In this document: positions 11,546-49,042 of the stretch, piece after piece
Layout of the letters: each line of letters starts with the position of its first letter
Numbering within the stretch: the first letter of the stretch is position 1
Origin: Pelagomonas calceolata
Lineage: Eukaryota
Direction of reading: 5' to 3'
Length of the DNA: 64,000 nucleotides
NCBI GenBank assembly: GCA_918797485.1
Contig: CAKKNE010000005.1
Location: 2,480,001-2,544,000, forward strand
Translations under genes and position numbers: made by a program
Notes under the pieces: model-generated
Told to the model about the DNA's origin: nothing
Seen by the model: the letters and a program-made list of their open reading frames with translations, nothing else
Databases searched by the model: none

Positions 11546-11570
11546 CCTAGTGTCTTTAAAGGACGCTAGC
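11546..11570 (-). promoter_or_regulatory. Spaced palindromic intergenic motif copy
   Basis: Minus strand GCTAGCG-TCCTTTAAAGA-CACTAGG, ~270 bp upstream of the CUE gene. Confidence 0.65.
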
Positions 11571-11650
11571 AGAATTTTCCCTAACGCAAAAGGCGGAACG
11601 AAGAGGACTCCCCGAGGTCGTCGACGAGTCCAAGAGACAAGAAAACTGAT

Positions 11651-13739
11651 TTACGCCGCCTTCGCGAAGAACCCGTGCGCCCCCGACGCCCGCGACGCGC
11701 TCTTCCGCATGGCCCTCAAGAACGACTTCGGCTTGTCCCGGAAGAGGTGCGGCCTCAGTAAAAACACGAAGGCGACGAGCTTCGTGTGGTGGTACGTGAA
11801 GCCCACCAGGCTGCCGACGTGCAGGCCGTCGTGGCCCCGGCACTCGCCCGCCGAGTCGATTTCTAGGATGGTTGATTTCTGAGCGTCCAACACAGACGAC
11901 CGCCCCTGGTCCGCGTAGCCCAGTAGACGGCCTTTTGAGTCTTCGATGCCGACGAGCGCCGCGTCCGTTTCATTCACAGAAACCTTCCCGACGAGCACGC
12001 CGCCGTCGTCCGTCGCCACGCCCAACGCCGCGTCGACGACGAGCAGCCGCGCGCCCTTGGCATCCTTGAGCGTCGCCCCGTCCTCGCAGATGTGGCCGCG
12101 GTACTGCGCGTCCCGATCCACTATCACTAACTGTGCATCTTTCGGAGCCGAGTAGATGTCGGCGCGCTTCTTCGTGGCGGGCGGCGCTTTCCGTGGTCGT
12201 GCTGAACCACTGCGCTGCGCCTCCTGCGCCGCGAACAACGTGTCGCGGTCCTCGCCTTCAATAAACGTGATGACGAGCGGCCGCGGCGCGTTCGCGATCG
12301 CCGACTTGAGCGTCTCGATGCTCTCCTCGTCGGGGTCCACGACGGCGGCGCCGTTCACAGCACACAACTCGTCGCCGGGCTTGACGCTCTCGAAGCACGC
12401 CGAGCCCCGCTCCGTCGAGTCTACCACCACGAAGCGCCGCCCGCTCTCGCCATATTTCGCGAGCGCCACCCTCAACCCGAGGCTCCGCTCCGGAAACTCG
12501 ACGTCAAACACCAGACCCCGGCTCCGCATCGCCGCGACGTGGTCCTGGACCGCGGCCCGCCTGCGTTGGTACGCCGTCGACGCGACGACGGCGTCGAGGC
12601 GGACGCGTCCCATCGGCACGCTGTCGAGGCAGACATGTACAGTCAGCACGCCGTCGAAGCGACGACGGCGGACACGCACAGTCACCACGCAGTCGACGCG
12701 ACGACGGCGGACAAGTGTCGACACAGGGGAAAAAAAAACAAAGACGCAGCAAAAAATACAGCGCGTCGCGCCGCTCCTTCGCGTCGTCGACCTCGGCCTC
12801 GACGCGCTGCGCGTGCTTATCCAATGGATCGTAGCCGCGCGCGTGCCGCGTCCGCGCGTCGTTTTCGTCGTTCTCGTAGAACTCGCCGACGTGCGTCGCG
12901 TGGCGCGCGGCGTCGGCCTTGGGCAGGGGCTTCCTTCCTACGGGATTGGCCTTGGCGGGCGGCTCCTTCGTCTCCTCCGGCTTTGGTGGCTCCGGGGACG
13001 GCGCCGCGGCGACCGCGGGCGCGGCGACCGGCGGCGTCGTCGCCGCGTCGTCGTCGTCCCATTCTCCATCCTCCTCCTCGTCATCCTCATCATCGTCGGG
13101 CGGCCGGCCGACGGCCGTGCGCAGCTCCGCCGCCTTGTCGAGCAGCGTGCGCCGCGCCTTTTGGGCTTCGGCGCGCTTCTCCCGCTTCGCGCTCGTTCTC
13201 ATATGAACGAGCTCGGCGATAGATATGGAGACGACCCACCTCGTTAATACCGCGGGCGCGTCGTCGATTGCAACGTCGCCGAGCGTCGCCGCCTTCTCGA
13301 TCCACTCACTTAACTCGTCAGCTCTTGAATCCTCGCCCTCCCATAAATCGTCGTAGTGCTCGAAGCGCTCGAACTGGGTCAGTGACGGCGACGCGTCCCG
13401 GAACTTGGGCCGCTGTGCCAGTGCAATTGTGTCCGCGAGGTCGTCGCTCGACCCGAAGACGTCGAGCAGCACGCCGGCGGCCCACCTTCGGAACTTCGCG
13501 GCCGCTTCCACGGAAAAGGCCGCCTCGATGCGGGCATCGACGCCGACCATGACCTCCTTGACCCTCGCGATCTCGTCGCCCTCGGACCACGTCCGCACCC
13601 AGGCCGCTACACTTTGCCGGTCCGGTAAACTTGCGTCGTCCCACGACGCCGCGGCTTCATCCTTTTCCTTAAGCCAGGGTGGTTGGGTGGCGTCGATGAG
13701 CAGCGCTTGCAGGGGCTGGGGGGTGGTGAAGTCGGCCAT
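11651..13739 (-). CDS. PDZ-domain protein, two exons
   Basis: Exons 13739-12760 and 12620-11651; the 139-nt GT-AG intron restores frame. Exon 2 has a PDZ-like FPERSLGLRV...VKPGDELCAVNG...PRPLVITF. Confidence 0.7.
12621..12759 (-). mobile_element. Degenerate introner-derived intron
   Basis: Ends CTGTCGAGGC / GTGTCGACACAG, with two tandem copies of the family motif (CACGCCGTCGAAGCGAC, CACGCAGTCGACGCGAC). Splice phase is consistent. Confidence 0.6.
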
Positions 13740-13932
13740 TTCTTTTAGCTCTTGCGTCGCGTTGCAGCGTCGTGCGAATGAAGCGCTGCAGCTGCAATGT
13801 GTCTTAGGGCTCTGTCGTGAAGGTCGTGAGCGCTTCGGCTGGGTCTGACGACTGCGTTCTATACGCAGGCCGTAGTAATGGCCTCTCGACGCTTGCGAAG
13901 CGCTGCTGGCCGGTTTTGGCCGATTGGACCGA

Positions 13933-13956
13933 GCTAGCGTCTTGTAAGACACTAGC
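13933..13956 (+). promoter_or_regulatory. Spaced palindromic intergenic motif copy
   Basis: GCTAGCG-TCTTGTAAGA-CACTAGC between divergent genes (ATGs at 13739 and 14248). Confidence 0.7.
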
Positions 13957-14247
13957 AATCTCGGTGTTTTGCCCAGCCGCCCGTAGACGCTGGCATCGAT
14001 CCTTCGGTGATCGTAAAACCGCGCCAAGGAACACCACGCATAGTGCGCCGAGTCTTGGCAGCATTTCTTGCGCGTTCGAAGTCAGGCTTCGCTACTGACT
14101 CAATCGGCCTTATCCTCGCATACCTCGACAACTCTGCGGAGGGCATCGAGACTGACAACTAAGCACTGACGCAAGTCGGCCATAGCTCGTACTGCGTGGA
14201 GGGTATCGAAACTGACAACCATTGCACCGCTACGCCTCCTCGCGACG

Positions 14248-15066
14248 ATGGCAACGATCAGCCTCGGCGACGCTCTGAGGGCCGGCGCCGAGATCACGAT
14301 GACCGTGGAGCCGCGCCCGCCGACGCCGCCGCCGCCCGAGCCCGAGCCCGCGTGCCGCTGGGAGGCCATGTGGAAGCGCGGCCTGGAGCCGGGCGACGCG
14401 TTTGATGTTGGCGGCGTGTCCGGCGCGCTCGCGTCCTACCTCAAGCGCGCCCCGCGGCCGCCGGAGGGCAGCGCGGCCCTCGTGCCGGGCTGCGGCCGCG
14501 CCTACGACGCGCTGGCCCTGGCGCGGCACGGCTTCGACCGCGTAGTGGCCGTGGACATCGCGCCGACGGCCGTGCGGGCGGCCATGAGCTTCCTCGAGGA
14601 CGAGGCCGACGGCTACGACGAGGACCTGGGCATTTATTACATACAGATCAAGGGGACGCGCTTCACGAAGATCGAGGTGTACGAGGTCGACTTCTTCGAC
14701 GTTCCAGATAAGTTCGACTTCATCTGGGACTGCACGTTCCTCTGCGCGCTCGACCCGTCGCTACGGGAGAAGTGGGCAACGAAGCAGAAGGCGCTCCTCG
14801 ACGAGAACGGCACGCTGCTTTCCTGTATTTTCCCCATTTGCGAGAAGGTCGGCGGGCCGCCCTACGCGCTCTCGGTGCCGCTCGTGACGGAATTATTGAA
14901 GCCGGAGGGCTTCGAGGCCGTCGAGACGCGCGTCTGTGAGGGCGCCGAGCGGCACGTGCCCGGGGCGATGGCCGGCGACGATTGCCCCGGGACGGCGCTC
15001 GTCGCGTGGAGGCTGGGCAAGCCCGACGCCGTCGAGGCGACCAGGGAGATAAGGAGTTCACACTAA
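14248..15066 (+). CDS. SAM-dependent thiol/halide methyltransferase (TPMT/HOL-like)
   Basis: [46 protein letters not shown]. Confidence 0.85.
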
Positions 15067-16175
15067 ACCTTCTTAACGACCTGGATCACGTCCTCGTCCG
15101 CGAGGACGTGGTCCTTGCCGACCTTCTGCGGCTGGTGGCGACACGACGACCCCCAGACCCAGGCGTACTTGAACTGCTCCATGATGCTCTTGTGGATGCG
15201 GTTGCAGAACTGCTCGACTGTGGGGCCATCCGCATGGAGCACGACGGGCTCGTCGTAGTCGGGGACCTGGCCCTTCGGTTTCGTGTAGACCCGTAACATG
15301 TTGCACTTCTGCCAGATCGTCTCCATGAGCTCGTCGATGTTCCACTCGTCCCTCGAACTGATAGGGACATAATTTGGAATCTCGTCGATAATATCTAATT
15401 CTTCTATTGTTAACTGATCAATTTTGTTCATCACATATAAGCCTGGAATATAAGTCCGTTTCCCATCACACACGTCGATGAACTGGTCATGTGTCACATC
15501 TTCTCGAAACGTGACGGTCGCGCAGTTGATGCGATACTCCTTGAGAATACGAGTCGCGATGTCTTGATTCATACCTTTAGTCTGGGGACACAGCCACTGA
15601 AAATCAATGCCGCCCCGCTCCTTCTTCTTGATCTTCACGTCCGGCGGCTTCTGGTTCAACCGGATCCCGAAATTGTCCAGCTCCCTTTCAATCAAGAATT
15701 TATGAGTAACGGGCTTCCCGGCATCCAGCACGATCATGATCATGTCGCAGGTGCGAGCCGCCGATATTACTTGCCTTCCGCGCCCCTTGCCCGTGGCCGC
15801 CCCTTCGATGATCCCTGGTAGGTCCAAAATTTGAATTCGCGCGCCGCGGTACTTCATCGTACCGGGTATGGCGGTCAACGTCGTGAACTCGTAGGCCGCC
15901 GCTTCACTCTTGGTCCCCGTCAGCGTTGTTAATAAAGTAGACTTGCCGACCGAGGGGAAGCCCACCAACCCGACGCGCGTGTCGCCGACCTTCTTCACAT
16001 CAAAACCGCGCTCGCCGCCGCCGCCGCCCGATTTCGAACCTTGGTCCTCGAGTTCTCTCCTCAACTTCGCGAGCTTGGCCTTGATCAAACCGAGATGGCC
16101 TTCCGTCTGCTTGTTTTTTTGCGTGCGCGCGTACTCCGCCTCGAGCTCCTTGATCTTGTCCTCGGTCGTGGGCAT
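15063..16175 (-). CDS. DRG1: Developmentally regulated GTP-binding protein (OBG family, TGS domain)
   Basis: [32 protein letters not shown] and C-terminal [23 protein letters not shown]. Confidence 0.95.
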
Positions 16176-16440
16176 GGTTTATGCTCTCTGCAGCTATGTG
16201 GCGTGTCGCAGCGACAGCGATGGCTCTCTGTGGCCTGTTCGCAGCTCTTTGTTGGGTGCGCGCCGCAAGCGATGGCGTCGGCTACTGGGTAGCGATGGCT
16301 CTCCTTGCTTGTCGTGCGGCTTTCTGCCTTGCGTAAATGCGTGCCACAGCGACTGTGTCGAGCTATGCGCTTGCAGTATGGGATCCGTTGCTCAGCTTAA
16401 GGCGCTTCACGACCAGCGACAGACCAAGGCCAAAAATCGG

Positions 16441-16463
16441 GCTAGCGGCTGTAAGACACTAGG
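16441..16463 (+). promoter_or_regulatory. Spaced palindromic intergenic motif copy
   Basis: GCTAGCG-GCTGTAAGA-CACTAGG midway between divergent DRG1 and SGNH genes; first 22 nt identical to the copy at 30603. Confidence 0.7.
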
Positions 16464-16711
16464 CATTCCCGTCGTCTAGCCCTAGCTACGGCCTGCGGGG
16501 AGCATCTGTGCCGCCAGCGCGTTTGGAGGTCCTGGGACATCGTCCGCGCCTGGCGTAAAGAGCTAGCGTCGAAAGCTAGCCGGCTCGGCGGTCTGCGAGT
16601 GCCCAAAAGCTGCTGCTCTGCGCGAGGCCCTAAATCGGCGCGCGACCGCGAACGGATTCCCAAATTGCTGGTAGAGAAGCATCTAAGGACGACTCTCACT
16701 GTGCACGCAAA

Positions 16712-17662
16712 ATGAAGCACTCCACGCATAACGCGCTAGCACTTTTGGCCTCGCTCCTCGCCGTCTCGTTGATTGTCAGCGCTCTCCGCCAGCGTCGGCT
16801 CAGCGCGGGGCCGCCGCGCCGCGCGCCACCGATACGCGTCGGCTTCGTCGGGAATTCCTTCACCTACTACAACGACCTGCCGGGCGTACTCTCGCGCGCG
16901 ACCGGCGTCGCCGTCGACGCCTGCACGCGCGGCGGGGCAAGTCTCGCATCCCTGCTTCGCGATGGCGGCGACGGCACCGGTCTCGCGGCCGTGCGCTTCG
17001 CCAAGGCCGCCCTCGCGCGGGCCCGTGGCGCGGACGCCTCGAAGAAGCGAGCGGCGGAGGCGGAGGCCACCGAGGCACAGCGCATCGCGGACGCCACCAA
17101 CAAAGTGGACGTGCCGGCCGCCGCGCGGGATCTCAGGGCGTTCCTGGGAGACGTCCAGCGAGACGTGGTCGTGGTCCAGGACTTTTCGCGCGGACCGATC
17201 AAGAATCGCGACGAGGGCGTCTCAGCGCTCCGAACGCTGGCGCCGCTGCTGCGCGAGGCGCGCGTCGTGGTATTGTATTCGACGTGGGCGTACGACAACG
17301 CCTTGACGCGCGCCGACGACGACCTACGCGACACGACGGCGATGGCGCGGGGGTTACAAGAGGGCTACGAGGAGTACGCGAGGGCGTTGCAAGCCGCCGG
17401 GGTTGAAACTATAGCGATCGCGCCCGTGGGCGCCGCTTTCGAGCTCGTGCGCGAGGCAGACGAGGCGCGATGGCGGTCCTTGTTCGCCCGTGACGGGTAC
17501 CACCCGTCGCCCGCGGGGACGTACCTCGCGGCCCGCGTCATCCACCTTACTATATCGACCGCGCTTCGCGACAAAGGCGGTGCCGAGATCGCGTGGCATG
17601 AGGACGACGGTCCAGCGGACCTCGCCGACGCGGCGCGCAGAGCGTGCGAGGCCCGCGTCTAG
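16712..17662 (+). CDS. SGNH/GDSL-type hydrolase with N-terminal membrane anchor
   Basis: FVGNSFTYYNDLP (block I), VVVQD, DGYHPSPAGTYLAA (DxxH). Confidence 0.75.
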   Translation: MKHSTHNALALLASLLAVSLIVSALRQRRLSAGPPRRAPPIRVGFVGNSFTYYNDLPGVLSRATGVAVDACTRGGASLASLLRDGGDGTGLAAVRFAKAALARARGADASKKRAAEAEATEAQRIADATNKVDVPAAARDLRAFLGDVQRDVVVVQDFSRGPIKNRDEGVSALRTLAPLLREARVVVLYSTWAYDNALTRADDDLRDTTAMARGLQEGYEEYARALQAAGVETIAIAPVGAAFELVREADEARWRSLFARDGYHPSPAGTYLAARVIHLTISTALRDKGGAEIAWHEDDGPADLADAARRACEARV

Positions 17663-17726
17663 CATGGGGATGTTGTGAGAATGTATTTTGTTACAGCTCG
17701 AAACTTATGAACACCCCTCCTCATGA

Positions 17727-18641
17727 TCAGTCCGTCCACCGCGCCGGCGCCGCCCCGTCGTCCTCGGCGTCGTCCAGCGGAGAGGTTCTCCGCCCGTATA
17801 GTGTAGGATCGTCGCGTTCGGGCCCCGGCGGCACGAGCGTCAGCCGCAGCCGGTCGCGTCCCACGTCGACGGCCTTGACCCAGCACTCCTGAATACTCTG
17901 CCCCGGCGCCTCGAGCTTGAGCCGCGGCACGCGCGCGGCGCCGACCTTGCGCCGCGGCAGGAGCCCGATGTCCGCGACGTGCAAATAGGCGGGCACGCGG
18001 GCGCCGACGTCCACGAAGGCCGCGTGCGGCGTCACGCGCGTCACGGCCACATCTTCTAAACGCTCGTCGACGCTGTAAGTTGATACGGCTCTCCTACTTT
18101 CGTCGACGGGCTCGACCTGCAACATTGATAGAGACAGCACGCGCTTCGCCGCGTCGGCGCCCTTGACGCACACATCAATCTCGTCGCCCAATCGCAAAAC
18201 CTCGCGCGAATCAGATACAAAGTCCGTGTCGGACATGTCCCGGCAGTGCACGAACCCGTCGACCTCGGCGCCGATCGACACCCAGGCGCCGTGGGGCTTG
18301 AGGTTGCGCACGACGCCGCTGAACCACTGGCCCGCCGTCGCGTTTTCCAGAGACGCCTCGGGCTTGAGCGGGAGGTAGGCCGGCCGCTGGCGCTGGCGCT
18401 CCTTCATCTGCCGCTGCGCGTCCAGCATCAAGCGCCGCGCCGCGCCGGCCTTGTCGAGCGGGCTGAAGCGCTCCTGGCGCTTCCTCGCCTTAATCCGGTT
18501 CTCCTCGAACTCGGGCGGCTCCCACTTTTCTTCCCTTTCTGCTAGCATGGGGGTTGCCACGGTGGGCTTTTTGTGGGGCGAGGGCCCTAAGAAGGCCGCC
18601 GCGCGGGTGAGGGCCAGCATCGCCGTCAGGGGGCGCGCCAT
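17727..18641 (-). CDS. S1 RNA-binding domain protein, probably plastid-targeted
   Basis: Two S1 repeats (GVVRNLKPHGAWVSIGAEVDGFVH; AFVDVGARVPAYLHVADI) and a signal-like N-terminus ending AAA-F. Confidence 0.8.
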   Translation of the reverse strand: MARPLTAMLALTRAAAFLGPSPHKKPTVATPMLAEREEKWEPPEFEENRIKARKRQERFSPLDKAGAARRLMLDAQRQMKERQRQRPAYLPLKPEASLENATAGQWFSGVVRNLKPHGAWVSIGAEVDGFVHCRDMSDTDFVSDSREVLRLGDEIDVCVKGADAAKRVLSLSMLQVEPVDESRRAVSTYSVDERLEDVAVTRVTPHAAFVDVGARVPAYLHVADIGLLPRRKVGAARVPRLKLEAPGQSIQECWVKAVDVGRDRLRLTLVPPGPERDDPTLYGRRTSPLDDAEDDGAAPARWTD

Positions 18642-18782
18642 CGCTCCCTTCCCAATTCGCCGGGGCTGTGCTGCGTGTCGCTGATGCCACAAACGCACGC
18701 TCTGCTGCGTGTGTCACTGTGGTCTTTTGGGACAGTGGTTCGCCGGGACACTCTGAAGTGCAAGCGAAGCGCTGCGGAGCGA

Positions 18783-18804
18783 GCTAGCGTACAAGGCCAC
18801 TAGC
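18783..18804 (+). promoter_or_regulatory. Spaced palindromic intergenic motif copy
   Basis: GCTAGCG-TACAAGGC-CACTAGC between divergent S1 and OTU genes. Confidence 0.65.
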
Positions 18805-18870
18805 ATCTCGTCCTTGCCGCGGTTTTTGCTGATTTTGGCCGTGCTGCGCGCTTGATTGCAGTAAGGAGCA

Positions 18871-20031
18871 ATGCGCGCAGTCCTCCTACTGCTCGCGGGC
18901 ACCGCTGCGCGCCGCCGCGGCGGCCCGCCACCGCTGCGCCACAAAAACAAGGGTACCGGCCTCACAGGCGGCGGGCCCGCGCGGCGCCGCGGCGGAGCGC
19001 ATCCGCTGCGCCACAAAAGCAACGGGCGCGCGCGACCGCTGCGCCACCAAAGCCGGGGCGGAATCGACCTCACCGGCGGCGGGCCGCTCATCGATGGCGA
19101 CGGCTTCCTTAGAGATCTGCTCCCAGTGCTGGACTACGACGAGTCGCAGGAGAACGTGACGACGAAGACGCCGACGCGCGGCCGCGCGCGGGGCTACCTG
19201 CGCGCGCGCCAGGTGCCCGGCGACGGCGCGTGCCTCTTCCACACGCTAAGCGCGGGCTTGTGGGAGTCGGTGAACGGCACGCACCACCCGATGGACCGCA
19301 AGGTCCTGAGGAGCCAGTCCCTGCGCCTGCGCGCGCGGGCCATCGACGTGCTCGAAGATAGGAGAGACCCGAAGCTCTACATGGGCGACAACGAGTACAT
19401 GAAGGCCTCGCAATTACTCGAGATGGCGGCGGAGCAGGCCGCCTGCGCCAAGGACGAGTACTGCGCCAAGCTGCGCGACCCGCGCGCCTGGGGCGGCGGG
19501 CCCGAGATTGTGGCCTTGTCGAACGCGTTGTCCCGGCCGATCCACATCTACGAGCTCGTCTGGGCCTCGGCCGACGCGCCCTGCGCGCGCAAGAACCTTA
19601 GAGGAGGCGCCGCAGACAGCGCGCCGAACGCGCCGCGGTGGTGCGTCCAGTGCATTGCGGAGTTTGGAACCCCAAAATGGAGCCGGCGCTACCCGCCCAT
19701 CCACGTGCTTTCTTGTGATTCCCGCTTTCCCCACCTCCAGCCGGAGCAGCAGCTCGAGCAGGGCAACCACTTCCTGCTCTTGTTTGAATGCGACCCGCAG
19801 GAGGCGCGCGAGGCCGCGCTCGAGGCCGGGGCCGACGACAGGGCCGCCGATCTCGTGTTCGCCGAATGCGCGAGGCGGCGAGTGCAGAAGGCCAAGGCCG
19901 TGACGGCGGATAGAGACGTTACCTGGGCGCCGTATTATGATCCATCGAAACCGCCGCGCCGGCGCTTCGGCGTGTCTCCTTTATTAGTGGGGGCGCTTGG
20001 GGTGGTGGCGAAGCTGCGGTTTGGTTTATAA
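18871..20031 (+). CDS. OTU-like cysteine protease (deubiquitinase)
   Basis: RQVPGDGACLFHTLS (catalytic D/C), WGGGPEI, GNHF (His); three N-terminal PLRH repeats. Confidence 0.8.
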   Translation: MRAVLLLLAGTAARRRGGPPPLRHKNKGTGLTGGGPARRRGGAHPLRHKSNGRARPLRHQSRGGIDLTGGGPLIDGDGFLRDLLPVLDYDESQENVTTKTPTRGRARGYLRARQVPGDGACLFHTLSAGLWESVNGTHHPMDRKVLRSQSLRLRARAIDVLEDRRDPKLYMGDNEYMKASQLLEMAAEQAACAKDEYCAKLRDPRAWGGGPEIVALSNALSRPIHIYELVWASADAPCARKNLRGGAADSAPNAPRWCVQCIAEFGTPKWSRRYPPIHVLSCDSRFPHLQPEQQLEQGNHFLLLFECDPQEAREAALEAGADDRAADLVFAECARRRVQKAKAVTADRDVTWAPYYDPSKPPRRRFGVSPLLVGALGVVAKLRFGL

Positions 20032-20041
20032 GTATGACAAG

Positions 20042-22276
20042 TTAAACAAACGGCCGCCCCGCCTCGAACGTCACGCGCTCGCTAGTCTCCGGATGCGGCA
20101 GCGCGAGCGACGCCGCGTGCAGACATAAACCGCCGCCCGGTGTCGCGTAGAGCGGGTCGCCGACGATGGCGTGCCCCGCCGCGAGGCAGTGGACGCGGAG
20201 CTGGTGTGACCGGCCCGTGAGCGGCTCGAGCCGGAGCAGCGACGTCTCGTCGCCGCTCTCCAGGGCCTCCCAGCGCGTGCGGGCGCCCTTCGCGCCCTCT
20301 TCACTTTCTTCCGCCGCGCGGTACCGCGGCTTGCCGTCCTTTTGCCGTGCTACAGCGTCCGCCGTGATGGCGGCCGTCCACTCGCCGCTGCCACTTAGCC
20401 GCCCGGCCACGCGCGCGACGTACGTCTTCCGCGTGTCGCCGGCGTCGCCGTCCGTCGACTTGCGGAAGGCGGCGCACAGCGCTGATGCGGCGGCGGTGGT
20501 GCGCGCGAAGACCAGGACGCCGCTAGTCTCATAATCAAGACGATGAACGGGCCGCAGGTCGCGGTCGCCCGCCGCGGCGCGCGCGAGGGCCAGCGCGTTC
20601 GGCGCCTCTTCATCGTTGTCGGGCGCCGCCAGCGCCTTGGCCGCGTCGTCGAGCTCGCGCCACAGCGTCCCGACGGCCGCGTCGTCGACGGCGCCGACGC
20701 GGCCCCGCGCCCGCTGCACGTGGGCCCGGAACTTGTCCTCGCGCCGCGGGATCGACGCCAGCGAGCCCACGCCGTTCAAGAGGCGGCCCGCGAGCGACTC
20801 GGCAGAAGCTTCGTCGCGCGCCCGCGCCAGCGCCTCCTCCCAGTACTCGCCGGCGCGCTTCCGCTTTTTCGTCGGCGCCGGCGCGTCGGGGTGGCGGCCC
20901 GGCACGGACAAGAGGTCCCGCGGCTTATTCACGACGACGAGCGACGCGTCGACGTGGAGCAGCTCGATCGTGTGCCTTATCTTCTCCACCACGCCGAGAA
21001 TCAGCTCGTTCGGCACCGGCAGCGACAGATTGTATTGAGCCAGCTTCCCGCCAATTATGACGCCCGTGCTCCGGCACCGGCCGAGATTCGCGTTGTTCAG
21101 CACCTCGTCGAACGCGACCACGCCGTCGCTCACTTCGTCGCAGCGCCGCGCGACGACGGTGTAGGCCCACGTGTTCCCCGTGGCGAATCTCTGACGCGCG
21201 TACTGGAGGAAGGCGTCGCGCGCCCACCGCTCCTCGGCCGCCGTGCCGAAGAAGACGAACGCGTCCGCCGCGAGGGCCTCGAGCGCGTCGCCGTCGCCGC
21301 GCGCGCAGGCCGCGTGCCACGCGTCGAGGGCGTCGGCGGCGGCTCTAGTACTACGAGCGCCGTCGACGGCGGGTGTTTCGTCGACGCGGACCTCCACGTA
21401 TGCCACGGCCGACGAGCCAAGGTCCACGAAGTCGTGACCGCTCATAGGGCTTCGCATCCGCACGACGTGTCGCGTGCCGGAGCGCGCCAGCGGGAACGAC
21501 AAGGTAGCTACCCGCGAACATTCGTCCGGCGTCGGCGTCGTCGCGGCGCCGAAGCGCATCGAGGCGCCGTCGCGCGTGAGCTTGTCGAGCGCCGCCGCCG
21601 GGAAGGGCCGGATGCCGCTCGGCCGGTGGCCCAGCCACACGTTGACGAGGAACGTGTAGCGCTTGCCTCCTCCGCTCGTAGTGAGAGCCCGCGGCGCCGC
21701 GTGCAAACAACGCCCGTCGAAGACGAGGTGGCGGCCGACGCGCGGCGCGCACGCCGCCGCGGCGTCGACGGGGCCGTCGGCGATGGCGCCCGTGAACGAG
21801 TCCGGTCGCTTGTCGAGGACCACCGTCGGCGCGCCCCCCTCAGAAAGGTACGTCACCGTCGCGAGCTGCGGGAAGACGTACATGCCGTGCAGCGTGTGCG
21901 CCTGCTCGTCCTTGTCCCAGTGGAAGCAAACCTCCCGTGCCGCTTCTTGGTTTGCCGTCGGGTCCTTGACCTGGGCCCACCACTCGACGCCGGACTTGGG
22001 GTCCGCGGCATGCGGCGACGCTGCGGCGTGCTTTCTAAAAATCTCCAGGGCCACGGCTTCGAGCGCGCAGCGCGGGCTCTCGCCCGCGCCGAGCCAGAAG
22101 GTGTCCTGCGGGACAAGCGGGCTCGCGACGAACTCTAGATCACGTTTCAGCTCCTCCAGGCGCTCGCACTGCAGCGCTTCGTCGTAGCACCGCGTTTTTA
22201 AGTCGAGGTGTTCTGTCGTCCCTTCGATCGTGCCGTTGTGCGCGATGGCGACGCAGAAGTCGTCGTCGAGGCTCAT
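20042..22276 (-). CDS. Three-domain fusion: 2OG-Fe(II)-like + SnoaL/NTF2-like + RluA-family pseudouridine synthase
   Basis: EWWAQ..FHWDKDE..ATVTYL..LH; then LDAWHAAC..FFGTAAEERW..FDEVL..GRCRSTGVI..QYNLS; then VNKPRDLLSVPG, HRLDYETSG, TGRSHQLRVH. One uninterrupted ORF. Confidence 0.8.
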   Translation of the reverse strand: MSLDDDFCVAIAHNGTIEGTTEHLDLKTRCYDEALQCERLEELKRDLEFVASPLVPQDTFWLGAGESPRCALEAVALEIFRKHAAASPHAADPKSGVEWWAQVKDPTANQEAAREVCFHWDKDEQAHTLHGMYVFPQLATVTYLSEGGAPTVVLDKRPDSFTGAIADGPVDAAAACAPRVGRHLVFDGRCLHAAPRALTTSGGGKRYTFLVNVWLGHRPSGIRPFPAAALDKLTRDGASMRFGAATTPTPDECSRVATLSFPLARSGTRHVVRMRSPMSGHDFVDLGSSAVAYVEVRVDETPAVDGARSTRAAADALDAWHAACARGDGDALEALAADAFVFFGTAAEERWARDAFLQYARQRFATGNTWAYTVVARRCDEVSDGVVAFDEVLNNANLGRCRSTGVIIGGKLAQYNLSLPVPNELILGVVEKIRHTIELLHVDASLVVVNKPRDLLSVPGRHPDAPAPTKKRKRAGEYWEEALARARDEASAESLAGRLLNGVGSLASIPRREDKFRAHVQRARGRVGAVDDAAVGTLWRELDDAAKALAAPDNDEEAPNALALARAAAGDRDLRPVHRLDYETSGVLVFARTTAAASALCAAFRKSTDGDAGDTRKTYVARVAGRLSGSGEWTAAITADAVARQKDGKPRYRAAEESEEGAKGARTRWEALESGDETSLLRLEPLTGRSHQLRVHCLAAGHAIVGDPLYATPGGGLCLHAASLALPHPETSERVTFEAGRPFV

Positions 22277-22463
22277 CGTCGTGCTGTGTTGGTTGAGAGC
22301 AGCCCAGGTGCGCAAGTGCTGTGCTTGGAGCGCTTTTTTTGGCACCAGCTGTGCCGCAGGAATGAATAATGATACTAGACGGTGCCTGTGGACGCTTCTG
22401 CTGGCGATCAACCGTCAACTAGCCCGGTTGCAGGCAATAAGCTGGCTTGGTACTTGCCTGCTT

Positions 22464-22486
22464 GCTAGTGTCTTACATGCGCTAGC
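22464..22486 (-). promoter_or_regulatory. Spaced palindromic intergenic motif copy
   Basis: Minus strand GCTAGCG-CATGTAAGA-CACTAGC, ~190 bp upstream of the RluA fusion. Confidence 0.7.
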
Positions 22487-22638
22487 GAAGATCCACGCGT
22501 GGGAGCCCTAGAAACCGCGCCCCGGGGACGGTATCTCGGCGCTTGGATGGACGGGGAAACCCGTACGCAGGATCGCGTCGAAAAAAATACTGAAAAAGTC
22601 ATTTACACGATGATACTAATAATTGCGAGCCCCGACAA

Positions 22639-30602: not shown

Positions 30603-30625
30603 GCTAGCGGCTGTAAGACACTAGC
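30603..30625 (+). promoter_or_regulatory. Spaced palindromic intergenic motif copy
   Basis: GCTAGCG-GCTGTAAGA-CACTAGC, ~215 bp upstream of the Maf gene. Confidence 0.7.
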
Positions 30626-31501: not shown

Positions 31502-31524
31502 GCTAGTGTCTAAGCTACGCTAGA
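31502..31524 (-). promoter_or_regulatory. Spaced palindromic intergenic motif copy
   Basis: Minus strand TCTAGCG-TAGCTTAGA-CACTAGC, 185 bp upstream of the PDZ gene. Confidence 0.55.
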
Positions 31525-32731: not shown

Positions 32732-32738
32732 TTAAACT

Positions 32739-34554: not shown

Positions 34555-34578
34555 GCTAGTATGTCACTATACGCTAGG
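34555..34578 (-). promoter_or_regulatory. Degenerate spaced palindromic motif copy
   Basis: Minus strand CCTAGCG-TATAGTGACA-TACTAGC between divergent LRR and CENP-S genes. Confidence 0.5.
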
Positions 34579-34814
34579 ATCGGCGCCGAGACCTTTCACG
34601 GGGCATATTGATCCTATTATCACTCTTCAGCGGCTGAGAGTCTATAGAAGTGCCGCAAACAGCGAGCGCTGGCCGCAGAAGCGAGCGCTAGGCCGCAGAA
34701 TCGAGAATCCACTGGTTGAGAAGGACACCCAGCTTGCGTGTGCTCCTTAACACCTGCCAAACCAAACGCACGCCGCCGGCCGTAGACAGCAGCGCCGGCC
34801 GGCCGCCCAGCACC

Positions 34815-35183: not shown

Positions 35184-35256
35184 GGAGCGTGTGTGTGTGT
35201 GCATCGCTTTTGTCGGACTCCTCTCGCGTCGATGGCGTAGAGGTTTTGCGCAAGAA

Positions 35257-35280
35257 GCTAGCGGCCCGTAAGGCACTAGC
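35257..35280 (+). promoter_or_regulatory. Spaced palindromic intergenic motif copy
   Basis: GCTAGCG-GCCCGTAAGG-CACTAGC, ~135 bp upstream of ATG 35414. Confidence 0.65.
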
Positions 35281-35413
35281 AGCGAGCATGTGCAATTTTG
35301 CTGCTGCGGCATGTCCACGGCCCTAAGGGTGGGCGGTGTTGCCGCCTTGGCGCTCGTTCCGGTGGCTGTAGTGCTGACGGTGTGGCTTCTGAGAGTCTGA
35401 GGCAGCCCCACCG

Positions 35414-36589: not shown

Positions 36590-36645
36590 TTTTTGTGATT
36601 TTTTCTCTCTCTGGTCTTTCTATAGAGCTACTACGATAGACCGCA

Positions 36646-36667
36646 GCTAGCGGTGTAAGACACTAGC
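36646..36667 (+). promoter_or_regulatory. Spaced palindromic intergenic motif copy
   Basis: GCTAGCG-GTGTAAGA-CACTAGC, ~115 bp upstream of ATG 36783. Confidence 0.7.
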
Positions 36668-36782
36668 AATCAGGGAGCTTTTGCAGGGCACAAATCATAC
36701 GCGCCCTGTGCAATCGCTGCGTAAACGTCCTCATCATTCATTCCACCGGCACGTCGAGCTCGCAAGCTATAAATCGGCCACC

Positions 36783-37700
36783 ATGCGTCGCACCGCATTG
36801 ATCTCCCTAATAGCCGCCTGGCAGTGCGCCGCCCTCGCGCCGGCGAACCGCCCGCTCGCCGCCCCGGGCAAGCATGTGCACGCGCAGCGGGCGCCCGCGC
36901 GCGCCCTGCCGCCGCAGGCGGAGCCCGCGCCGGACCTCGAGGCCGCGGTGCCCGACGGGCTGCCCGCGACGCCGTCCTTTAAACTCGTGGCCTTCCTCTG
37001 GGCCAATACGTTGTTATTAGCACCGGTAGCTTTGGCGGGCGCGGCCATGGGCGCGAACGTGCTCGGGCCGAACTGGGCCTGGTCCGCGAAGGCCGCGCGC
37101 CAGGGCGTCCTCTTCGCGCTCCCGTGGATCGCGCTGTCCTTCGCGCCGCTGGACAAGTGGGTGCCGGCCATGGCTGATGTGACTGCTCATACCGAACTCC
37201 TCACGGCGACGGCCCTGGGCGTCGAGTTCGGCGGCTACCGGCGGTGGGGCCAGGTCGCCGGCGCGACGGCTCTGGTCTCGGCGTCGGCCGGAGCGCTCGA
37301 GGAAGCCGCCTTTAGAGGAGTGGCGCAGCGGGGCGTCGCCGCGGCCGTCGCGTGGCTGCTGCGCCTTGGCCGCGCGGCAACGGCCGGCCCCGTCGACCGC
37401 GTCGCGACGGCCGTGGCCGTCGGCGTCGTCGCGGGCGGCTTCGGCGCGCTGCACGACTACTGCCGGGGCTACGCGCTGCTGGCGGCGCTCGCGGGCGCGT
37501 ACTTTGGCGTCGTCTACGCGTGCACGGGGAACCTGCTCGTCGCGGCGGTGGCGCACGCGGCCGTCGACGCTGTGGCCTTCGTCACGTGCTACTGGTCGCT
37601 CTGCCGCCGGTCGGCGGCAGACAAGGCCAAGCTCGCCGCGCGGTCGTTCAAGGTCACGGACGCGCTCCGCGCGACGCGGGCGCGGCTCGAGGCGGCGTAA
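36783..37700 (+). CDS. CPBP/Abi-family (CAAX) intramembrane metalloprotease
   Basis: EEAAFRG, FGALH, AHAAVD, multiple TM segments, signal-like N-terminus. Confidence 0.85.
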   Translation: MRRTALISLIAAWQCAALAPANRPLAAPGKHVHAQRAPARALPPQAEPAPDLEAAVPDGLPATPSFKLVAFLWANTLLLAPVALAGAAMGANVLGPNWAWSAKAARQGVLFALPWIALSFAPLDKWVPAMADVTAHTELLTATALGVEFGGYRRWGQVAGATALVSASAGALEEAAFRGVAQRGVAAAVAWLLRLGRAATAGPVDRVATAVAVGVVAGGFGALHDYCRGYALLAALAGAYFGVVYACTGNLLVAAVAHAAVDAVAFVTCYWSLCRRSAADKAKLAARSFKVTDALRATRARLEAA

Positions 37701-37717
37701 TATTTTATCGACAACAT

Positions 37718-38791
37718 TTAGCCCCCCCCCGCCTTCCGCAGGAACGTCAGCCACTGGTATCGGTCCGACACCTTGCGCCGGAACGCCTCCGTGAAGTAGT
37801 GCTGGCGCGCCTTGAAGACTCGATGGAAGAGCGCCAGGTCGTGCTTGCGCCGCTTGCTGTCGTTCCGCGCGTAGACTACCTGCTGCGCCGCGGCCAGTGC
37901 GACTCTTGCGTCGAGCGGCGGCCGGCGCGCCATCGCCGCGTCGACGAAGAGGCACGGCTCGAGCGCGGGATCCGCGAACCCGAAGGACAGCGCGACGCGC
38001 GGCGGCTCGCGGTGGTCCGGCGCCGCCGCCGCGCCCCAGTGCACGACTCGATGAGAGAGGAGCAGGAACCCACCCGCGTCGAGTGGCAACGCGCGCACCC
38101 TCTGATAGCACGCTTTCGCGCCCGACGCCTCGTCGGCGCCGAGCGCCGCGGCGACCGGGTCCGCCACTGCACCGTCGCCGCCCTCGGCATACGCCCTGTC
38201 GCCGCGCCGTGGAACGACGTACATGCAGCCGTTCGCCGGCGTCGCTCGCGACAAAGCGACCCAGGCGACGTTCGACCGTGGCGCGTCGTCCTCCCGAAAC
38301 GTCGTCGCTGCGTCCTCGGGTTGCCGGTCGCGGTGTGGCCCGAAGCCGCTCGCGCCGGGCTCGACGCGGAACGCGATGGCGTCGCCGGTCGCGACGTTGC
38401 CGCCCGTCGCCGTGGAGATTACCGTCGCGAGTTGCGCCTGGAGCCGCCACGACGCCTCGTAGGCCAATAGGAAGCCTGGCGGGAAGCCGTGCGCCGCCAA
38501 GGAAGCTGCGGCTCGCGCTAGCCGCGACACGTCGACGCACCACGGCGGCGGTCGCTCGACGGCGACGAAGCCGTCAGCCGCGAGTGCAGCACGGAGTTTT
38601 TCACCATCGCCCGCCGCGACCTCGAACGGTGCCGCGTCGGCGTCGGCGCCGTCCAGACCCGGCGCCAGCGCCGACCACAGCTCGGGCGCGAAGAGCTCGT
38701 CCAGCGTCTGCGAGTCCAAGTGCAGTTCTGGACGTTTTGTGACTGGCGGCGCGTCGGCTACGGAGAGTGGCGTGAGATCGATGGCCACCAT
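37718..38791 (-). CDS. Phytanoyl-CoA dioxygenase (PhyH)-family 2OG oxygenase
   Basis: FGPHRD, AWVALSRATPANGCMYVVP, VVHWG. Confidence 0.8.
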   Translation of the reverse strand: MVAIDLTPLSVADAPPVTKRPELHLDSQTLDELFAPELWSALAPGLDGADADAAPFEVAAGDGEKLRAALAADGFVAVERPPPWCVDVSRLARAAASLAAHGFPPGFLLAYEASWRLQAQLATVISTATGGNVATGDAIAFRVEPGASGFGPHRDRQPEDAATTFREDDAPRSNVAWVALSRATPANGCMYVVPRRGDRAYAEGGDGAVADPVAAALGADEASGAKACYQRVRALPLDAGGFLLLSHRVVHWGAAAAPDHREPPRVALSFGFADPALEPCLFVDAAMARRPPLDARVALAAAQQVVYARNDSKRRKHDLALFHRVFKARQHYFTEAFRRKVSDRYQWLTFLRKAGGG

Positions 38792-38992
38792 AGTTTTGGA
38801 GACTGGTTTGCAGTGAGTCTGGGTCGTGCAGTGACACTACTACAGCTGCCCCTTGGAGGTTGCAATGTCGACGTCGAGCGACTATAGAGTGCGTCTCAGC
38901 CAACTCAGATCGATCTTAAACTCAACTTCCGAGCAGTTTGATGCACGCAGTGCTTCGCCAAGGGAGCCTCGCAAATCGAGTCTCTCTAGCAA

Positions 38993-39017
38993 GCTAGTGC
39001 CTCTATACACCGCTAGG
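38993..39017 (-). promoter_or_regulatory. Spaced palindromic intergenic motif copy
   Basis: Minus strand CCTAGCG-GTGTATAGAGG-CACTAGC between divergent genes. Confidence 0.6.
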
Positions 39018-39173
39018 GTATTATTATTGCCAAAAAGCGCTGCCGTAGGTCACAGGGGACCTCGCACGGCACGGATAGACGAGAAATAAGAAGCAGCCAT
39101 AACACGCAAAAAGAGCTCCGCAAAAGCAGCGGCGAGCGGCCATCAGCGGTAGGCCAAGACAGCAGCAGTGACC

Positions 39174-40403
39174 ATGGCGCTAGACGCCGCGGATCACGCG
39201 GACATCATGAAGCTCAGCCTCGAGGAGCGCGTCGCGCAGCGCGTCAAAGACGTAAAAACCATGACGAAGCGGCCCTACGCGCCGGCCGCGGACCCGCTCC
39301 CTCCAAAAAGTTCGGAGAACCGCTTCGCGGCGCCCACAAATAGCTTCGCGCTCGGGAGCGCGGAGCGGCCAAGGAGAAGGAAGCCCCGGGGGCGCGCGAC
39401 GAATGATCTGAATGACGTCTGGGCCTCGCTGGACAAGCTCAACGAGGCGGACGAGGCCGACGCGCTCGACGGCGTCACGTTGGATGAGGACTTGTGTGCC
39501 GCGTTCGACGCGGCGGCGAAGATTGCTGACGACGACGAGTACGACTGGAGCGCCGGAGCGACGAGCTTCGCGGAGCTGGCCGTCGAGAAGCTCGAATTTG
39601 GCGTCTCGCTGCTGCCGGAGGCGTCCCTCGAAAATGATGCGGGGCCCTACCGCGACCAGGAGCCTCTACTAGAATCGTCGGACGACGAGTCGTCGGAGGA
39701 CGACGCGCCGCCGGAGATCGACGAGGTCCTCGAGCAAGAAAGAGAAGAGGCCGAGGCCTTCCGGAACCGGAGATTGGGAGAGGCGCCTCCAGTCGTGGCG
39801 AGGGGCAAAGGCAAGCTCAAACCCAAGGCCTCGCCGACGTGCGTCGCGGACTTCGCCGATTTGCAATCGGGCGAGACGTTGGATATCACAAAACTCGAGG
39901 AGGCCTGCGAAAAGGAAATCGTCTACCCCAGAAATCCTAACCGCATGAAGGATGAGGAAGCTACAAAGCGGGGCGAGGCCATCGCGAAGCATTACCGGGC
40001 GCAGATGGAGCGCAAGGAGGCTAAAGAACAGCGACGTCGGACGCGTGCGATGCGCGGCCGCGTGCTCGGCGAGGACGAGGCGGACACGTCGTCGTCTGAG
40101 GATGACGACGGCGCCTTGCGCGAGCCCATCCCGCCGGGCGCCTTCGACCACGGCGGCGCGTCTACAACCGCGGAGCCGCGGCCGTCGCCGTTCCCGGCCT
40201 GGGACGACAGTAAGAACGTGGCGGAGAACCTCGACGCGTGCCTCGCGCGGCTGCGCGTGGGTGCGCCCCTGGCCGACGCGGACGTCGCGGGCACCGCCGG
40301 CGCCGCCCTGGTGAACGAGCTGCCGCCCGACTTGGATGGAGAGGGCGCGTTCAACCCGGCGCTCGGGGCGCTCGCGGACGACGGCGGGGCGTTCGCGGAC
40401 TAA
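39174..40403 (+). CDS. Hypothetical acidic protein
   Basis: ~409-aa ORF with typical codon usage; no domain recognised. Confidence 0.7.
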   Translation: MALDAADHADIMKLSLEERVAQRVKDVKTMTKRPYAPAADPLPPKSSENRFAAPTNSFALGSAERPRRRKPRGRATNDLNDVWASLDKLNEADEADALDGVTLDEDLCAAFDAAAKIADDDEYDWSAGATSFAELAVEKLEFGVSLLPEASLENDAGPYRDQEPLLESSDDESSEDDAPPEIDEVLEQEREEAEAFRNRRLGEAPPVVARGKGKLKPKASPTCVADFADLQSGETLDITKLEEACEKEIVYPRNPNRMKDEEATKRGEAIAKHYRAQMERKEAKEQRRRTRAMRGRVLGEDEADTSSSEDDDGALREPIPPGAFDHGGASTTAEPRPSPFPAWDDSKNVAENLDACLARLRVGAPLADADVAGTAGAALVNELPPDLDGEGAFNPALGALADDGGAFAD

Positions 40404-46662: not shown

Positions 46663-46685
46663 ATGTAATACATGAATACTACAAC

Positions 46686-47141: not shown

Positions 47142-47378
47142 GGCTGGCCGAAATTACACGCGTACGAGTACGAGTATGCGCACGCGGGGCCGCCTCGAGC
47201 AGGTCTGTGATTCAGCACAGAGAGGACAGTGCCTTGATTCAGCAATTATACAATCGAATCGATCGTCCGCAGCGAATATTAGGCGAAGCGGCGACCTGTT
47301 CGATCCAAATTGTGACCTAGCGCTGCTCAGCCTCCCAGCACCCGCCGCGCGCTCACTTGCTTGCTAGTGTCAGTGCTT

Positions 47379-47402
47379 GCTAGTGTGTTACATGCCGCTA
47401 GC
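47379..47402 (-). promoter_or_regulatory. Spaced palindromic intergenic motif copy (extra half-site at 47363)
   Basis: Minus strand GCTAGCG-GCATGTAACA-CACTAGC between divergent genes. Confidence 0.7.
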
Positions 47403-47495
47403 TGTCATTATTGCAAACCACCTCACTTCATCAACTCGTTAGTTTGGTGTTATCTTCAGAGCCAATTTTGCCAGAACTTAACCCAACTTAAAGGC

Positions 47496-48947
47496 ATGGC
47501 CAAGCTCTTGCCGCTGACGCTGGCAATAGCGTGCAATGCAGAATTAATCCTCGATGGCGGCGACAACGGCTGGTCGCAATGGTACCGCTCCGTCGACGGC
47601 GTCATGGGCGGCCGCTCGTCGATAAGCGTGCAAAGAGACGGCAACGTCCTGGAGGCATCGGGCGAGATTGTCACCGCGGGCGGCGGCTTCGCCGGCATGT
47701 ACACTCGCCTCGACGACGTCGACGCGTCGAATTTCGCGGGCCTCCGCGTTACGTACGAGGCGCTGCCCGCCGGCCAGACGCCGCTCGCGTGGGAGGTTCG
47801 GCTCAAGGGGCGCGGCGACTCGAGTCGCTACATCGACTTTGGGGCGAGTTTTGCCGTGCCACCTTCATCGAACAACAACGGCGTCGGCTCGGCGTCGCTG
47901 CCGTTCGAGGAGTTCCTGCCGCGCTGGCGCGGCAATGACCGCACCGGGACGCTTGATCTGACTGCCCTCAACGAAGTGGGCTTCCAACTTTTGTTCCAGG
48001 ACGGCCCCTTTACTCTGCGCCTCCGGGAGATATCGCTGGTGGATAGCATCGCGCCCCCCGCTGATCCGGCGCCGGGGATGGACGCTACGCCGTCTGCCGT
48101 CCGCGACGCCATCGACGCCGCGACGCGCCGCGCGGACTACCTCGTGGGCAAGGGCTACGCCGCCCAAGCCGCAGCCGTCCTCGCATCCACTGCGCGCGCC
48201 GTCGCTACGACCCTCGACGGCGTTCCTGGTACTGCTCGTGCCCAAGAGGCCCTCGGCGCCGCTCTGGCCGAAGCCTCCGCCATCGTGGCGACCAGCGAGG
48301 AAGGACGCATAGGGGCTTTACGTGTCGGTCTCGATATCGCCCAGACCGAGGCCGCCGGGTCGGCGTGGACGAAGTCATACGCCGAGGTCGGCCGCGTGTG
48401 CCGCCCGAAGAACGACGATGGCTACGTGACGACTAAGGTTGAGGACGCGGCCGCCTGTCAGGCGCTGTGCGACGCCGACACGACGTGCGGGGCCTGGGAG
48501 TACGAGAACTATGCGGCGGACGACCGCGAGTGTGAGCTCCACGAAGCTAGTGTTGTCGATGCAAAGGCGACCGCGGCGCAAGGGCCGTGCCAGACGTCGG
48601 ATCCCGAGAACTACCGGTGCTGTCATATCGATGAAGCGTTGATTGAGACGCCCGCGGACGACCCAGACACGGAATCTGAGGAGGACGCGACCCAGTACGT
48701 CCCCCCTGCCAAGCCGGCCCCCGCGGACGACGCGACCGCCGGTGACCACGGCGGATCGAAAAAGAAGCAGAGCAAAGGCAGTGAATGGCCCGTTGTCGTT
48801 GGCGTCGTGCTGGCGCTCACGTTCCTGATGATCCTCGGCATCGGGTGCTCGCTCTGGGCGCGCGGCGCCCGCGTGGACCCCTCGGACTCCAAGGCCGCGG
48901 CGGCGGCGCCCGGCGAGGAAACGGAGGAGCCGCTCCAAGTCGTCTGA
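47496..48947 (+). CDS. Type I membrane protein with CIA30-like and PAN/apple-like domains
   Basis: Signal peptide; WYRSVDGVMGGRS, GGGFAG, PFEEFLPRWRG, DGPFTLRL; AACQALCDADTTCGAWEY..ECELH; TM VVVGVVLALTFLMILGIGCSLW. Confidence 0.75.
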   Translation: MAKLLPLTLAIACNAELILDGGDNGWSQWYRSVDGVMGGRSSISVQRDGNVLEASGEIVTAGGGFAGMYTRLDDVDASNFAGLRVTYEALPAGQTPLAWEVRLKGRGDSSRYIDFGASFAVPPSSNNNGVGSASLPFEEFLPRWRGNDRTGTLDLTALNEVGFQLLFQDGPFTLRLREISLVDSIAPPADPAPGMDATPSAVRDAIDAATRRADYLVGKGYAAQAAAVLASTARAVATTLDGVPGTARAQEALGAALAEASAIVATSEEGRIGALRVGLDIAQTEAAGSAWTKSYAEVGRVCRPKNDDGYVTTKVEDAAACQALCDADTTCGAWEYENYAADDRECELHEASVVDAKATAAQGPCQTSDPENYRCCHIDEALIETPADDPDTESEEDATQYVPPAKPAPADDATAGDHGGSKKKQSKGSEWPVVVGVVLALTFLMILGIGCSLWARGARVDPSDSKAAAAAPGEETEEPLQVV

Positions 48948-49015
48948 GGGGTCGTCGCTTCGTCTCTCCCGGCCCCAATCCTGTAAAAATCATGTGCTTT
49001 GACTCGTTTGATGGA

Positions 49016-49042
49016 CTGTAAGACACTAAGACACTCACTAGC
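49016..49042 (+). promoter_or_regulatory. Partial or rearranged copy of the intergenic motif
   Basis: CTGTAAGACACTAAGACACTCACTAGC (core and right arm only), ~135 bp upstream of ATG 49176. Confidence 0.5.

Follow-up and report, generated by a model that had tools for sequence, protein, structure and literature searches.

What is the role of a short, spaced near-palindrome that recurs ahead of unrelated genes in an alga? The question is raised by a 64,000-nucleotide stretch of Pelagomonas calceolata DNA (assembly GCA_918797485.1, contig CAKKNE010000005.1, positions 2,480,001 to 2,544,000 of the forward strand), here called the window, which is gene-dense eukaryotic DNA of 66% GC. An earlier note, made from the letters of the window, had described the arrangement GCTAGCG-N8-11-CACTAGC and proposed a general, possibly bidirectional promoter element. 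Our analysis bears this out: RNA 5′ ends stand in a fixed relation to the element on either side, at a set distance from both arms, and the element is absent from coding DNA. Where it occurs in the window there is one copy per promoter-side interval, upstream of functionally unrelated genes, as had been stated. Its positions differ in constraint, and in homologous promoters it has been retained and, in some, flipped. The element is real, probably functional and apparently an undescribed variant of promoter element. As a reasonably probable explanation we favour a TATA-less, orientation-tolerant promoter element, likely read by a constitutive, sequence-specific factor that would keep a short stretch of DNA open and fix the start; by analogy, the role of this factor would most likely resemble that of Reb1/Abf1 or ZNF143.

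Copies and anatomy of the element

Eleven matches to CTAGYG-N7-14-CRCTAG lie in the 64-kb window, where 0.10 is expected and 100 shuffles gave at most 2. Together with the copy at 34555, in which TACTAG replaces CACTAG, they make up 12 full copies, all of them present where they had first been placed. The CTAG tetramer itself occurs near expectation (112 against 117 expected), and the signal therefore lies in the pairing of two CTAGs. An interval has either a strong copy or no match above 8 bits, an all-or-none pattern without a tail of degenerate copies, and in a generic repeat search of the window the element was not among the top families. Two suspected weak copies fared poorly: a first matrix gave 11.7 bits for the one at 60689 and missed the one at 56835, and with a second matrix both stayed below 8 bits. 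The density, about one copy per 5 kb, would amount to thousands of copies genome-wide if the window is typical.

Read in orientation, the consensus is (A)GCTAGCG-(GCC)-TGTAAGA-CACTAGC-AAGC, with a length of about 24 bp (24–28 bp in the comparison with yeast sites below). The spacer measures 8–11 nt, as described before (8 nt in two window copies, 9 nt in four, 10 nt in four and 11 nt in two), and the TGTAAGA seen at its end belongs to the consensus. Differences in spacer length sit mostly between the left arm and TGTAAGA; the element can therefore be read as two blocks, a fixed one on the right, TGTAAGACACTAGCAA, and one on the left, AGCTAGCG, with a spacing that varies by 3 bp. This anatomy departs from two earlier suggestions. 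The half-sites are not one helical turn apart, since the CTAG centres of the window copies are separated by 16–19 bp, or about 1.6–1.8 turns. Nor does a symmetric dimer suit a fixed right block, a spacing with 3 bp of play and arms that are consistently asymmetric, with CG on one and CA or TA on the other in 21 of the 25 matches that were not selected by exact seed; symmetric arms (CTAGCG...CGCTAG) are absent among those 25.

The copies in the window are given here with their neighbouring genes and with the pile-ups of RNA 5′ ends discussed below; the strand is plus where the GCTAGCG arm comes first.

11546..11570, minus strand: full element in a tandem interval, upstream of a CUE-domain gene (ATG 11276); minus-strand 5′ pile-up at 11509, 37 nt from the edge.
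13933..13956, plus strand: full element between a divergent pair, a gene with ATG 13739 (no function given) and a TPMT-like gene (ATG 14248); minus-strand 5′ pile-up at 13907 in 2 runs, at 26 nt, with plus-strand RNA already in the same bin.
16441..16463, plus strand: full element between a divergent pair, a DRG-type GTPase gene (ATG 16175) and a DUF4886-like gene (ATG 16712); minus-strand 5′ pile-ups at 16405, 16407 and 16421, at 20–36 nt.
18783..18804, plus strand: full element between a divergent pair, an S1-domain gene and an OTU gene; no listed 5′ pile-up, low depth.
22464..22486, minus strand: full element in a tandem interval, upstream of a pseudouridine synthase gene (ATG 22276); no listed 5′ pile-up, low depth.
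30603..30625, plus strand: full element in a tandem interval, with the GCTAGCG arm toward a Maf gene (ATG 30386), the orientation exception; no listed 5′ pile-up.
31502..31524, minus strand: full element in a tandem interval, upstream of a highly expressed PDZ-domain gene (ATG 31317); minus-strand 5′ pile-ups at 31469–31482 in 4 of 4 runs, at 20–33 nt.
34555..34578, minus strand: full element, TACTAG variant, between a divergent pair, an LRR gene and a CENP-S gene; minus-strand 5′ pile-up at 34525, at 30 nt.
35257..35280, plus strand: full element in a tandem interval, upstream of a gene with ATG 35414; plus-strand 5′ pile-up at 35312, at 32 nt.
36646..36667, plus strand: full element in a tandem interval, upstream of an Rce1-like gene (ATG 36783); no listed 5′ pile-up.
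38993..39017, minus strand: full element between a divergent pair, a PhyH gene and a gene with ATG 39174; plus-strand 5′ pile-ups at 39044 and 39049 in 4 of 4 runs, at 27–32 nt, on the GCTAGCG side.
47379..47402, minus strand: full element with an extra half-site at 47364, between a divergent pair, a small gene and a CIA30 gene (ATG 47496); outside the stretches covered by read mapping.
49016..49046, plus strand: partial copy, recognized as such before, consisting of the right half only, an internally duplicated right block without the GCTAGCG arm.

Copies outside the window come from a metagenome collection, in which a 20-base pattern matched at least 122 stretches in at least 121 loci. A relaxed pattern gave 156 matches in the metagenome loci and the window; four without clear orientation and two true duplicates were dropped, leaving 138 metagenome and 12 window copies. 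These numbers, and those given below for the metagenome copies, are among the matches listed. The metagenome copies lie on marine contigs, several of them tied to Pelagomonas; of nine proteins from these loci that were looked up, six are in the collection, and three of the six cluster at 90% with P. calceolata proteins. The PDZ-domain protein of the window has its nearest named relatives in pelagophytes (65–69% identity) and many marine sequences at 92–97%. In viral contigs the 20-base pattern has no match; scattered single matches to a 14-base pattern (among those listed) and two matches to a 17-base pattern, in DNA of 45–48% GC with non-consensus flanks, were read as chance. Five matches in prokaryote genomes (L244–L248, with L246 and L248 representing the same locus) were rejected as prokaryotic copies. 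Judged by the appearance of their open reading frames (ORFs), eukaryote-looking genes stand there beside bacterial or archaeal ones, and the contigs of these metagenome-assembled genomes look chimeric.

Other repeats occur in the same DNA. A 494-bp non-coding stretch at 58611–59104 is 92% identical to L188:2775–3267, in an unrelated locus, and is probably a dispersed repeat; a homologue search with the L188 protein gave no named relative. A short repeat, CACCTGTGTGGAAATCAAATTTCG...CCATCGACGCGAC, shared at 76% between 29561–29703 and L134:5280–5429, is likely an introner-type intron. A different, perfect-armed palindrome, CTAGTGGCGCAAAACTCACTAG, lies inside a shared repeat near elements at L135:3883 and L192:14, and L159, L189 and L193 share a repeat of about 70–90 bp (GCCCGCCGCCAATGAATCGGCGACGCGCGGT...) close to the CACTAG side of several elements.

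Promoter-side position and transcript 5′ ends

Among the intervals of the window that contain a gene start, 12 of 26 hold a copy, six between divergent pairs, in agreement with the earlier count, and six in tandem intervals. Start codons lie about 65–290 bp from the copies, essentially the range of about 70–290 bp given before, and the genes downstream are functionally unrelated (CUE, TPMT, DRG-type GTPase, S1, OTU, pseudouridine synthase and Maf; also PDZ, LRR, CENP-S, Rce1-like, PhyH and CIA30). The coding DNA of the window contains no copy, nor do its five convergent intervals of at least 40 bp; absence from both had been claimed, and stands. Similarly, the copy at 30603 is indeed the sole exception to the orientation of tandem copies, the CACTAG arm facing the gene in five of six such copies.

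Exclusion from coding sequence (CDS) extends beyond the window. No match reached 12 bits in 128 kb of CDS scanned with the matrix, and predicted CDS holds none of the 138 metagenome copies (0 of 88 in loci of at least 1.4 kb); of 2670 random positions, by comparison, 1548 were coding, as were 124 of 430 other CTAGs. Seed-free intervals hold a copy in 9 of 37 promoter-side cases and in 0 of 17 convergent ones. A gene start lies on at least one side of 78 of the 138 metagenome copies, 15 have a 3′ side only and one lies 3′–3′; the remaining 44 have no assigned side (94 do). The distance to the ATG is 51–276 bp on one side (median 174, n = 45) and 47–382 bp on the other (median 171, n = 49). The sign of the AT skew switches at the element, with negative values on one flank and positive values on the other; A/T tracts are concentrated within 30 nt, and GC is lower beside the element. 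In the 60 nt around the element, TATAWA is present at only 4 of 150 copies, so that a TATA box is not a regular companion, and flank profiles show no fixed initiator letter.

Where does transcription begin relative to the element? Four stranded poly(A) RNA-seq runs from one sample were mapped on 30000–40000 and 11000–23000. Of the 23 listed rows of 5′-type pile-ups, 22 fall 20–37 nt outside an element edge (31–49 nt from its centre), and seven of eight pile-up loci are tied to an element, on the CACTAG side at 11546, 31502, 34555 and 35257 and on the GCTAGCG side at 13933, 16441 and 38993. If ends could fall anywhere between element and ATG, such clustering would have a probability of about 7 × 10⁻⁸. 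These data place the element outside the mRNA. Binned depth has RNA leaving 13933, 16441 and 34555 both ways, and little stable RNA, about 0–1x, on the gene-less side of the tandem copies at 11546, 22464, 31502, 35257 and 36646. The read depth of the downstream genes ranges from about 1x to more than 400x. Among the rows listed, no loose ends that would point to trans-splicing occur at the 5′ pile-ups.

The reads also confirm two introns, 12560–12758 (199 nt) and 33637–33715 (79 nt), with CT..AC on the plus strand; the first comes close in length to the introners reported for Pelagomonas in the accessible text of the genome preprint (10.1101/2021.10.25.465678). At 16612–16642, each run has 200–460 reads that match no more than this 30-nt piece before running on into different sequence, and that carry G>C at 16620; these reads are from a related copy in an abundant RNA elsewhere.

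A companion box accompanies some elements, with one copy in the window.

22501..22520 (extended 22501–22535), minus strand: companion box GCGCGGYTYCYAGGGCTCCC, 15 nt from the GCTAGCG arm of the element at 22464 and in the same orientation.

About 5% of elements have its extended form, (GGG)GCGCGGCTTCCAGGGCTCCC(GCG), on their GCTAGCG side. Seven non-coding copies lie beside elements, all in the same orientation, six of them 14–25 nt away and one 69 nt away; those outside the window are at L123:1351, L128:754, L135:4127, L141:1441, L181:737 and L205:331. The box could be the site of a second factor, a terminator or a roadblock.

Constraint, persistence and competing explanations

Is the element maintained for its sequence? 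An unweighted consensus scan with up to 4 mismatches, from which the metagenome seeds were excluded, gave 21 non-coding and no coding matches. Mismatches in these 21 largely spare the CTAG cores, with a single one among 168 core positions and 40 among the 273 others (p = 3 × 10⁻⁸), and information is at background about 2 bp to the left and about 6 bp to the right of the arms. The 156 matches form 141 flank clusters, so the flanks are unique and there is no shared body. In two pairs of homologous promoters, L128/L142 (82–87% flank identity) and L148/L176 (90%), the element has the same orientation. In two others it stands in opposite orientation at about the same place: L151/L234 (76–77%, both flanking genes homologous; copies at L151:1525 and L234:301) and L140/L166 (72%, one flanking gene homologous; copies at L140:1153 and L166:551). 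In L140 the other side still carries TGCTTG, the usual tail in reverse, as if the element had been flipped between its arms. Selected for an element in both members, these pairs show persistence and flipping, not a rate of retention. The flank match between L124 and L211, along with several others, was set aside as reflecting dispersed repeats, not homologous promoters.

We propose the following model for a constitutive factor acting at an orientation-tolerant, TATA-less element. The predicted protein would read both CTAG cores through two linked modules, one for the right block TGTAAGACACTAGCAA and one for the left block AGCTAGCG, and may be a multi-domain or heterodimeric protein rather than a rigid symmetric dimer. 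By analogy, it would exclude or position nucleosomes as yeast general regulatory factors do, and the Pol II machinery would assemble just outside the element, with the start fixed on whichever side the gene lies. The direction of transcription would be decided downstream of the element, given how little stable antisense RNA is present on the gene-less side of tandem copies. A distant transposon origin of what is now a selected site is compatible with this model.

Several points weigh against it. The element is not universal, being missing from 14 of the 26 promoter-side intervals in the window. The gene calls come from a simple Markov model trained on ORFs of the window, with exons added by hand, and the metagenome seeds were chosen by exact pattern. 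Convergent intervals overall hold no copy (0 of 22), a result that is weak after length correction (about 3.4 expected) because these intervals are short. Orientation is not fully free, with CACTAG toward the gene in 17 of 23 tandem copies overall (p = 0.035). As for the transcripts, the eighth pile-up locus, at 14660, is unrelated to an element and lies inside a gene, behind a poorly covered stretch; the pile-up counts are of rows listed, five further rows for 30000–40000 not being included; and 4 of the 11 elements in the mapped stretches, at low depth, have no listed pile-up. Element-less promoters in these stretches have no 5′ pile-up to serve as a control. Two-way use of the copies at 13933, 16441 and 34555 is read from binned depth only, and the mapped runs contain no exact 5′ ends on both sides of one copy. 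Finally, RNA-seq ends are not caps, and the actual starts may be somewhat nearer to the element.

The fixed spacing admits another explanation, possible but rather unlikely in our view, in which the element is read by the basal machinery, or by a dedicated lineage-specific initiation factor, and serves as a TATA stand-in and fixed ruler that does not act via nucleosomes. The TATA box has its position at about −30, and the 20–37 nt from element edge to 5′ end come near it. A basal-factor site is expected to be directional, however, and this element works from both arms. The 18-nt spread of the 5′ ends is loose for a ruler, although RNA-seq blurs ends, about half of the promoters lack the element and the flanks offer no fixed initiator letter. 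The near absence of TATA and the single, all-or-none copy per promoter speak for such a ruler, as does the description of oomycete core promoters as TATA-less with elements of their own (PMC3599244, accessible text). It is a doubtful but conceivable proposal that a lineage-specific initiation factor has replaced TATA at about half of Pelagomonas-type promoters, binding one long site with two arms, with Pol II placed about 30 bases to either side, and that the site can flip in place in the course of evolution without loss of function.

Flipping also invites the idea that the copies are relics of a mobile element, either an insert of 13–14 bp with a duplicated CTAG(C) target or a CACTA-like end, which entered open promoters and was perhaps later domesticated. 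We consider this very unlikely. The consensus is long, with one exact 24-mer accounting for 27 of 124 pattern-selected copies, and such sites would rarely arise by point mutation; moreover, CTAGC is directly repeated at both ends and the orientation is reversed in two pairs of homologous promoters. A longer shared repeat with target-site duplications (TSDs) had been named in the earlier note as evidence that would count against a promoter role; both were looked for and neither was found. Duplications outside the element were at chance level over 32 boundary choices and 6 lengths, in a test that is blind to an invariant CTAG target and hence to the CTAGC repeat. The CTAGs that would be the duplicated target are under stronger constraint than any other positions, contrary to what neutral decay would leave; degenerate copies form no tail, the element is retained at homologous positions across diverged lineages, and the CACTA word points outward into unique DNA. 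The element resembles miniature inverted-repeat transposable elements (MITEs), CACTA ends and the introners of pelagophytes (for the introners, 10.1101/2021.10.25.465678, accessible text) in its short inverted repeats, its many copies and the word CACTA; unlike them, it has no outside TSD and no shared body, is not intronic, encloses 8–11 bp between its arms and has constrained cores.

We also give little credence to a site for a condition-specific regulator (light, cell cycle or nutrient) with a large regulon. The element is present in fewer than half of the promoter-side intervals, and GCTAGC is, in the accessible text on Toxoplasma, the site of AP2XI-5, found in 12.3% of promoters and associated with late cell-cycle genes (PMC13734140); here, however, the downstream genes are unrelated and differ widely in depth, and the tight 5′-end distance and single copy fit a structural role better. 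A DNA cruciform or RNA hairpin in place of a protein-read sequence can practically be discounted: the inverted arms do pair fully as RNA on one strand with a G–U pair (mean about −8 kcal/mol), but RNA 5′ ends lie outside the element on both sides, the arms keep their C/A asymmetry in 21 of the 25 unselected matches, the spacer does no better than shuffled versions of itself when RNA or DNA is folded (n = 26), DNA folding energies are only −2 to −3 kcal/mol, and an Rfam search with the element gave no match.

Known systems and meaning for pelagophytes

Which known systems does a two-sided promoter element, likely read constitutively, resemble? The papers cited in this section were accessible in part, and the comparisons hold for those parts. 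In yeast, Rap1, Reb1 and Abf1 exclude nucleosomes and control initiation sites in intrinsically bidirectional promoters (10.1101/331793). Like the sequence-specific sites of these general regulatory factors, the element is found in promoters of unrelated genes; it differs from them in sequence, is longer (24–28 bp) and quasi-palindromic with variable inner spacing, and lies closer to the 5′ end. Nucleosome exclusion, a feature of the yeast system, is a prediction for the element. Human ZNF143, a pervasively expressed factor that stimulates initiation, has a 29-bp promoter motif of a class enriched in bidirectional promoters (PMC11754675). It is a long promoter motif, as here, but is anchored on TGGGA, degenerate and without inverted CTAG arms.

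The Toxoplasma AP2XI-5 site, a single GCTAGC of 6 bp, peaks 82–84 bp upstream of gene starts (PMC13734140, PMC6631176). The left arm contains this hexamer exactly, and the site is promoter-enriched in another eukaryote of the SAR (stramenopile, alveolate and rhizarian) group; the G at −1 of the left arm is present in 95% of a largely pattern-selected set, and the hexamer in 9 of the 12 window copies. In the element, however, it is one arm of two blocks, the right arm being ACTAGC, and the Toxoplasma site is tied to a late cell-cycle programme. The resemblance, one of letters, may be due to chance. Oomycetes have INR and FPR elements at the start and a DPEP about 25 nt downstream, mostly in forward orientation, with INR plus FPR in about 13% of genes (PMC3599244). 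These are likewise stramenopile, TATA-less, lineage-specific and at fixed positions relative to the start; the Pelagomonas element differs from them in sequence, lies upstream and outside the transcript, works from either arm and occupies 12 of 26 promoter-side intervals. Separately, both arms are CTAGY words. A giant virus that infects Aureococcus, a related alga, methylates the adenine of CTAG, CTAGY and CYTAGC words, and its genome is poor in CTAG (PMC12700378); a link to the element is speculation.

No description of the element was found in the literature searched, most subscription papers and supplements lying outside the searched text, and none of any pelagophyte promoter element. Papers that contain pieces of the sequence deal with unrelated topics, judged by listing. 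The searchable text of the Pelagomonas genome preprint (10.1101/2021.10.25.465678) contains neither "palindrom" nor "motif", and the accessible parts of PMC4815162, PMC6672047, PMC11267843 and 10.1101/2025.04.21.649811 hold nothing bearing on the element.

Pelagophytes include abundant open-ocean picoalgae. In the DNA examined, about half of the promoter-side intervals carry this one 24-bp word, from which 5′ ends can be predicted to within about 20 nt; gene annotation would profit from such a marker, and it flags pelagophyte DNA in metagenome assemblies. The element would also provide a ready minimal two-way promoter for genetic tools; it is a direct bait for finding the predicted factor, and it offers a test case for how start site and direction are chosen in compact, TATA-less genomes.

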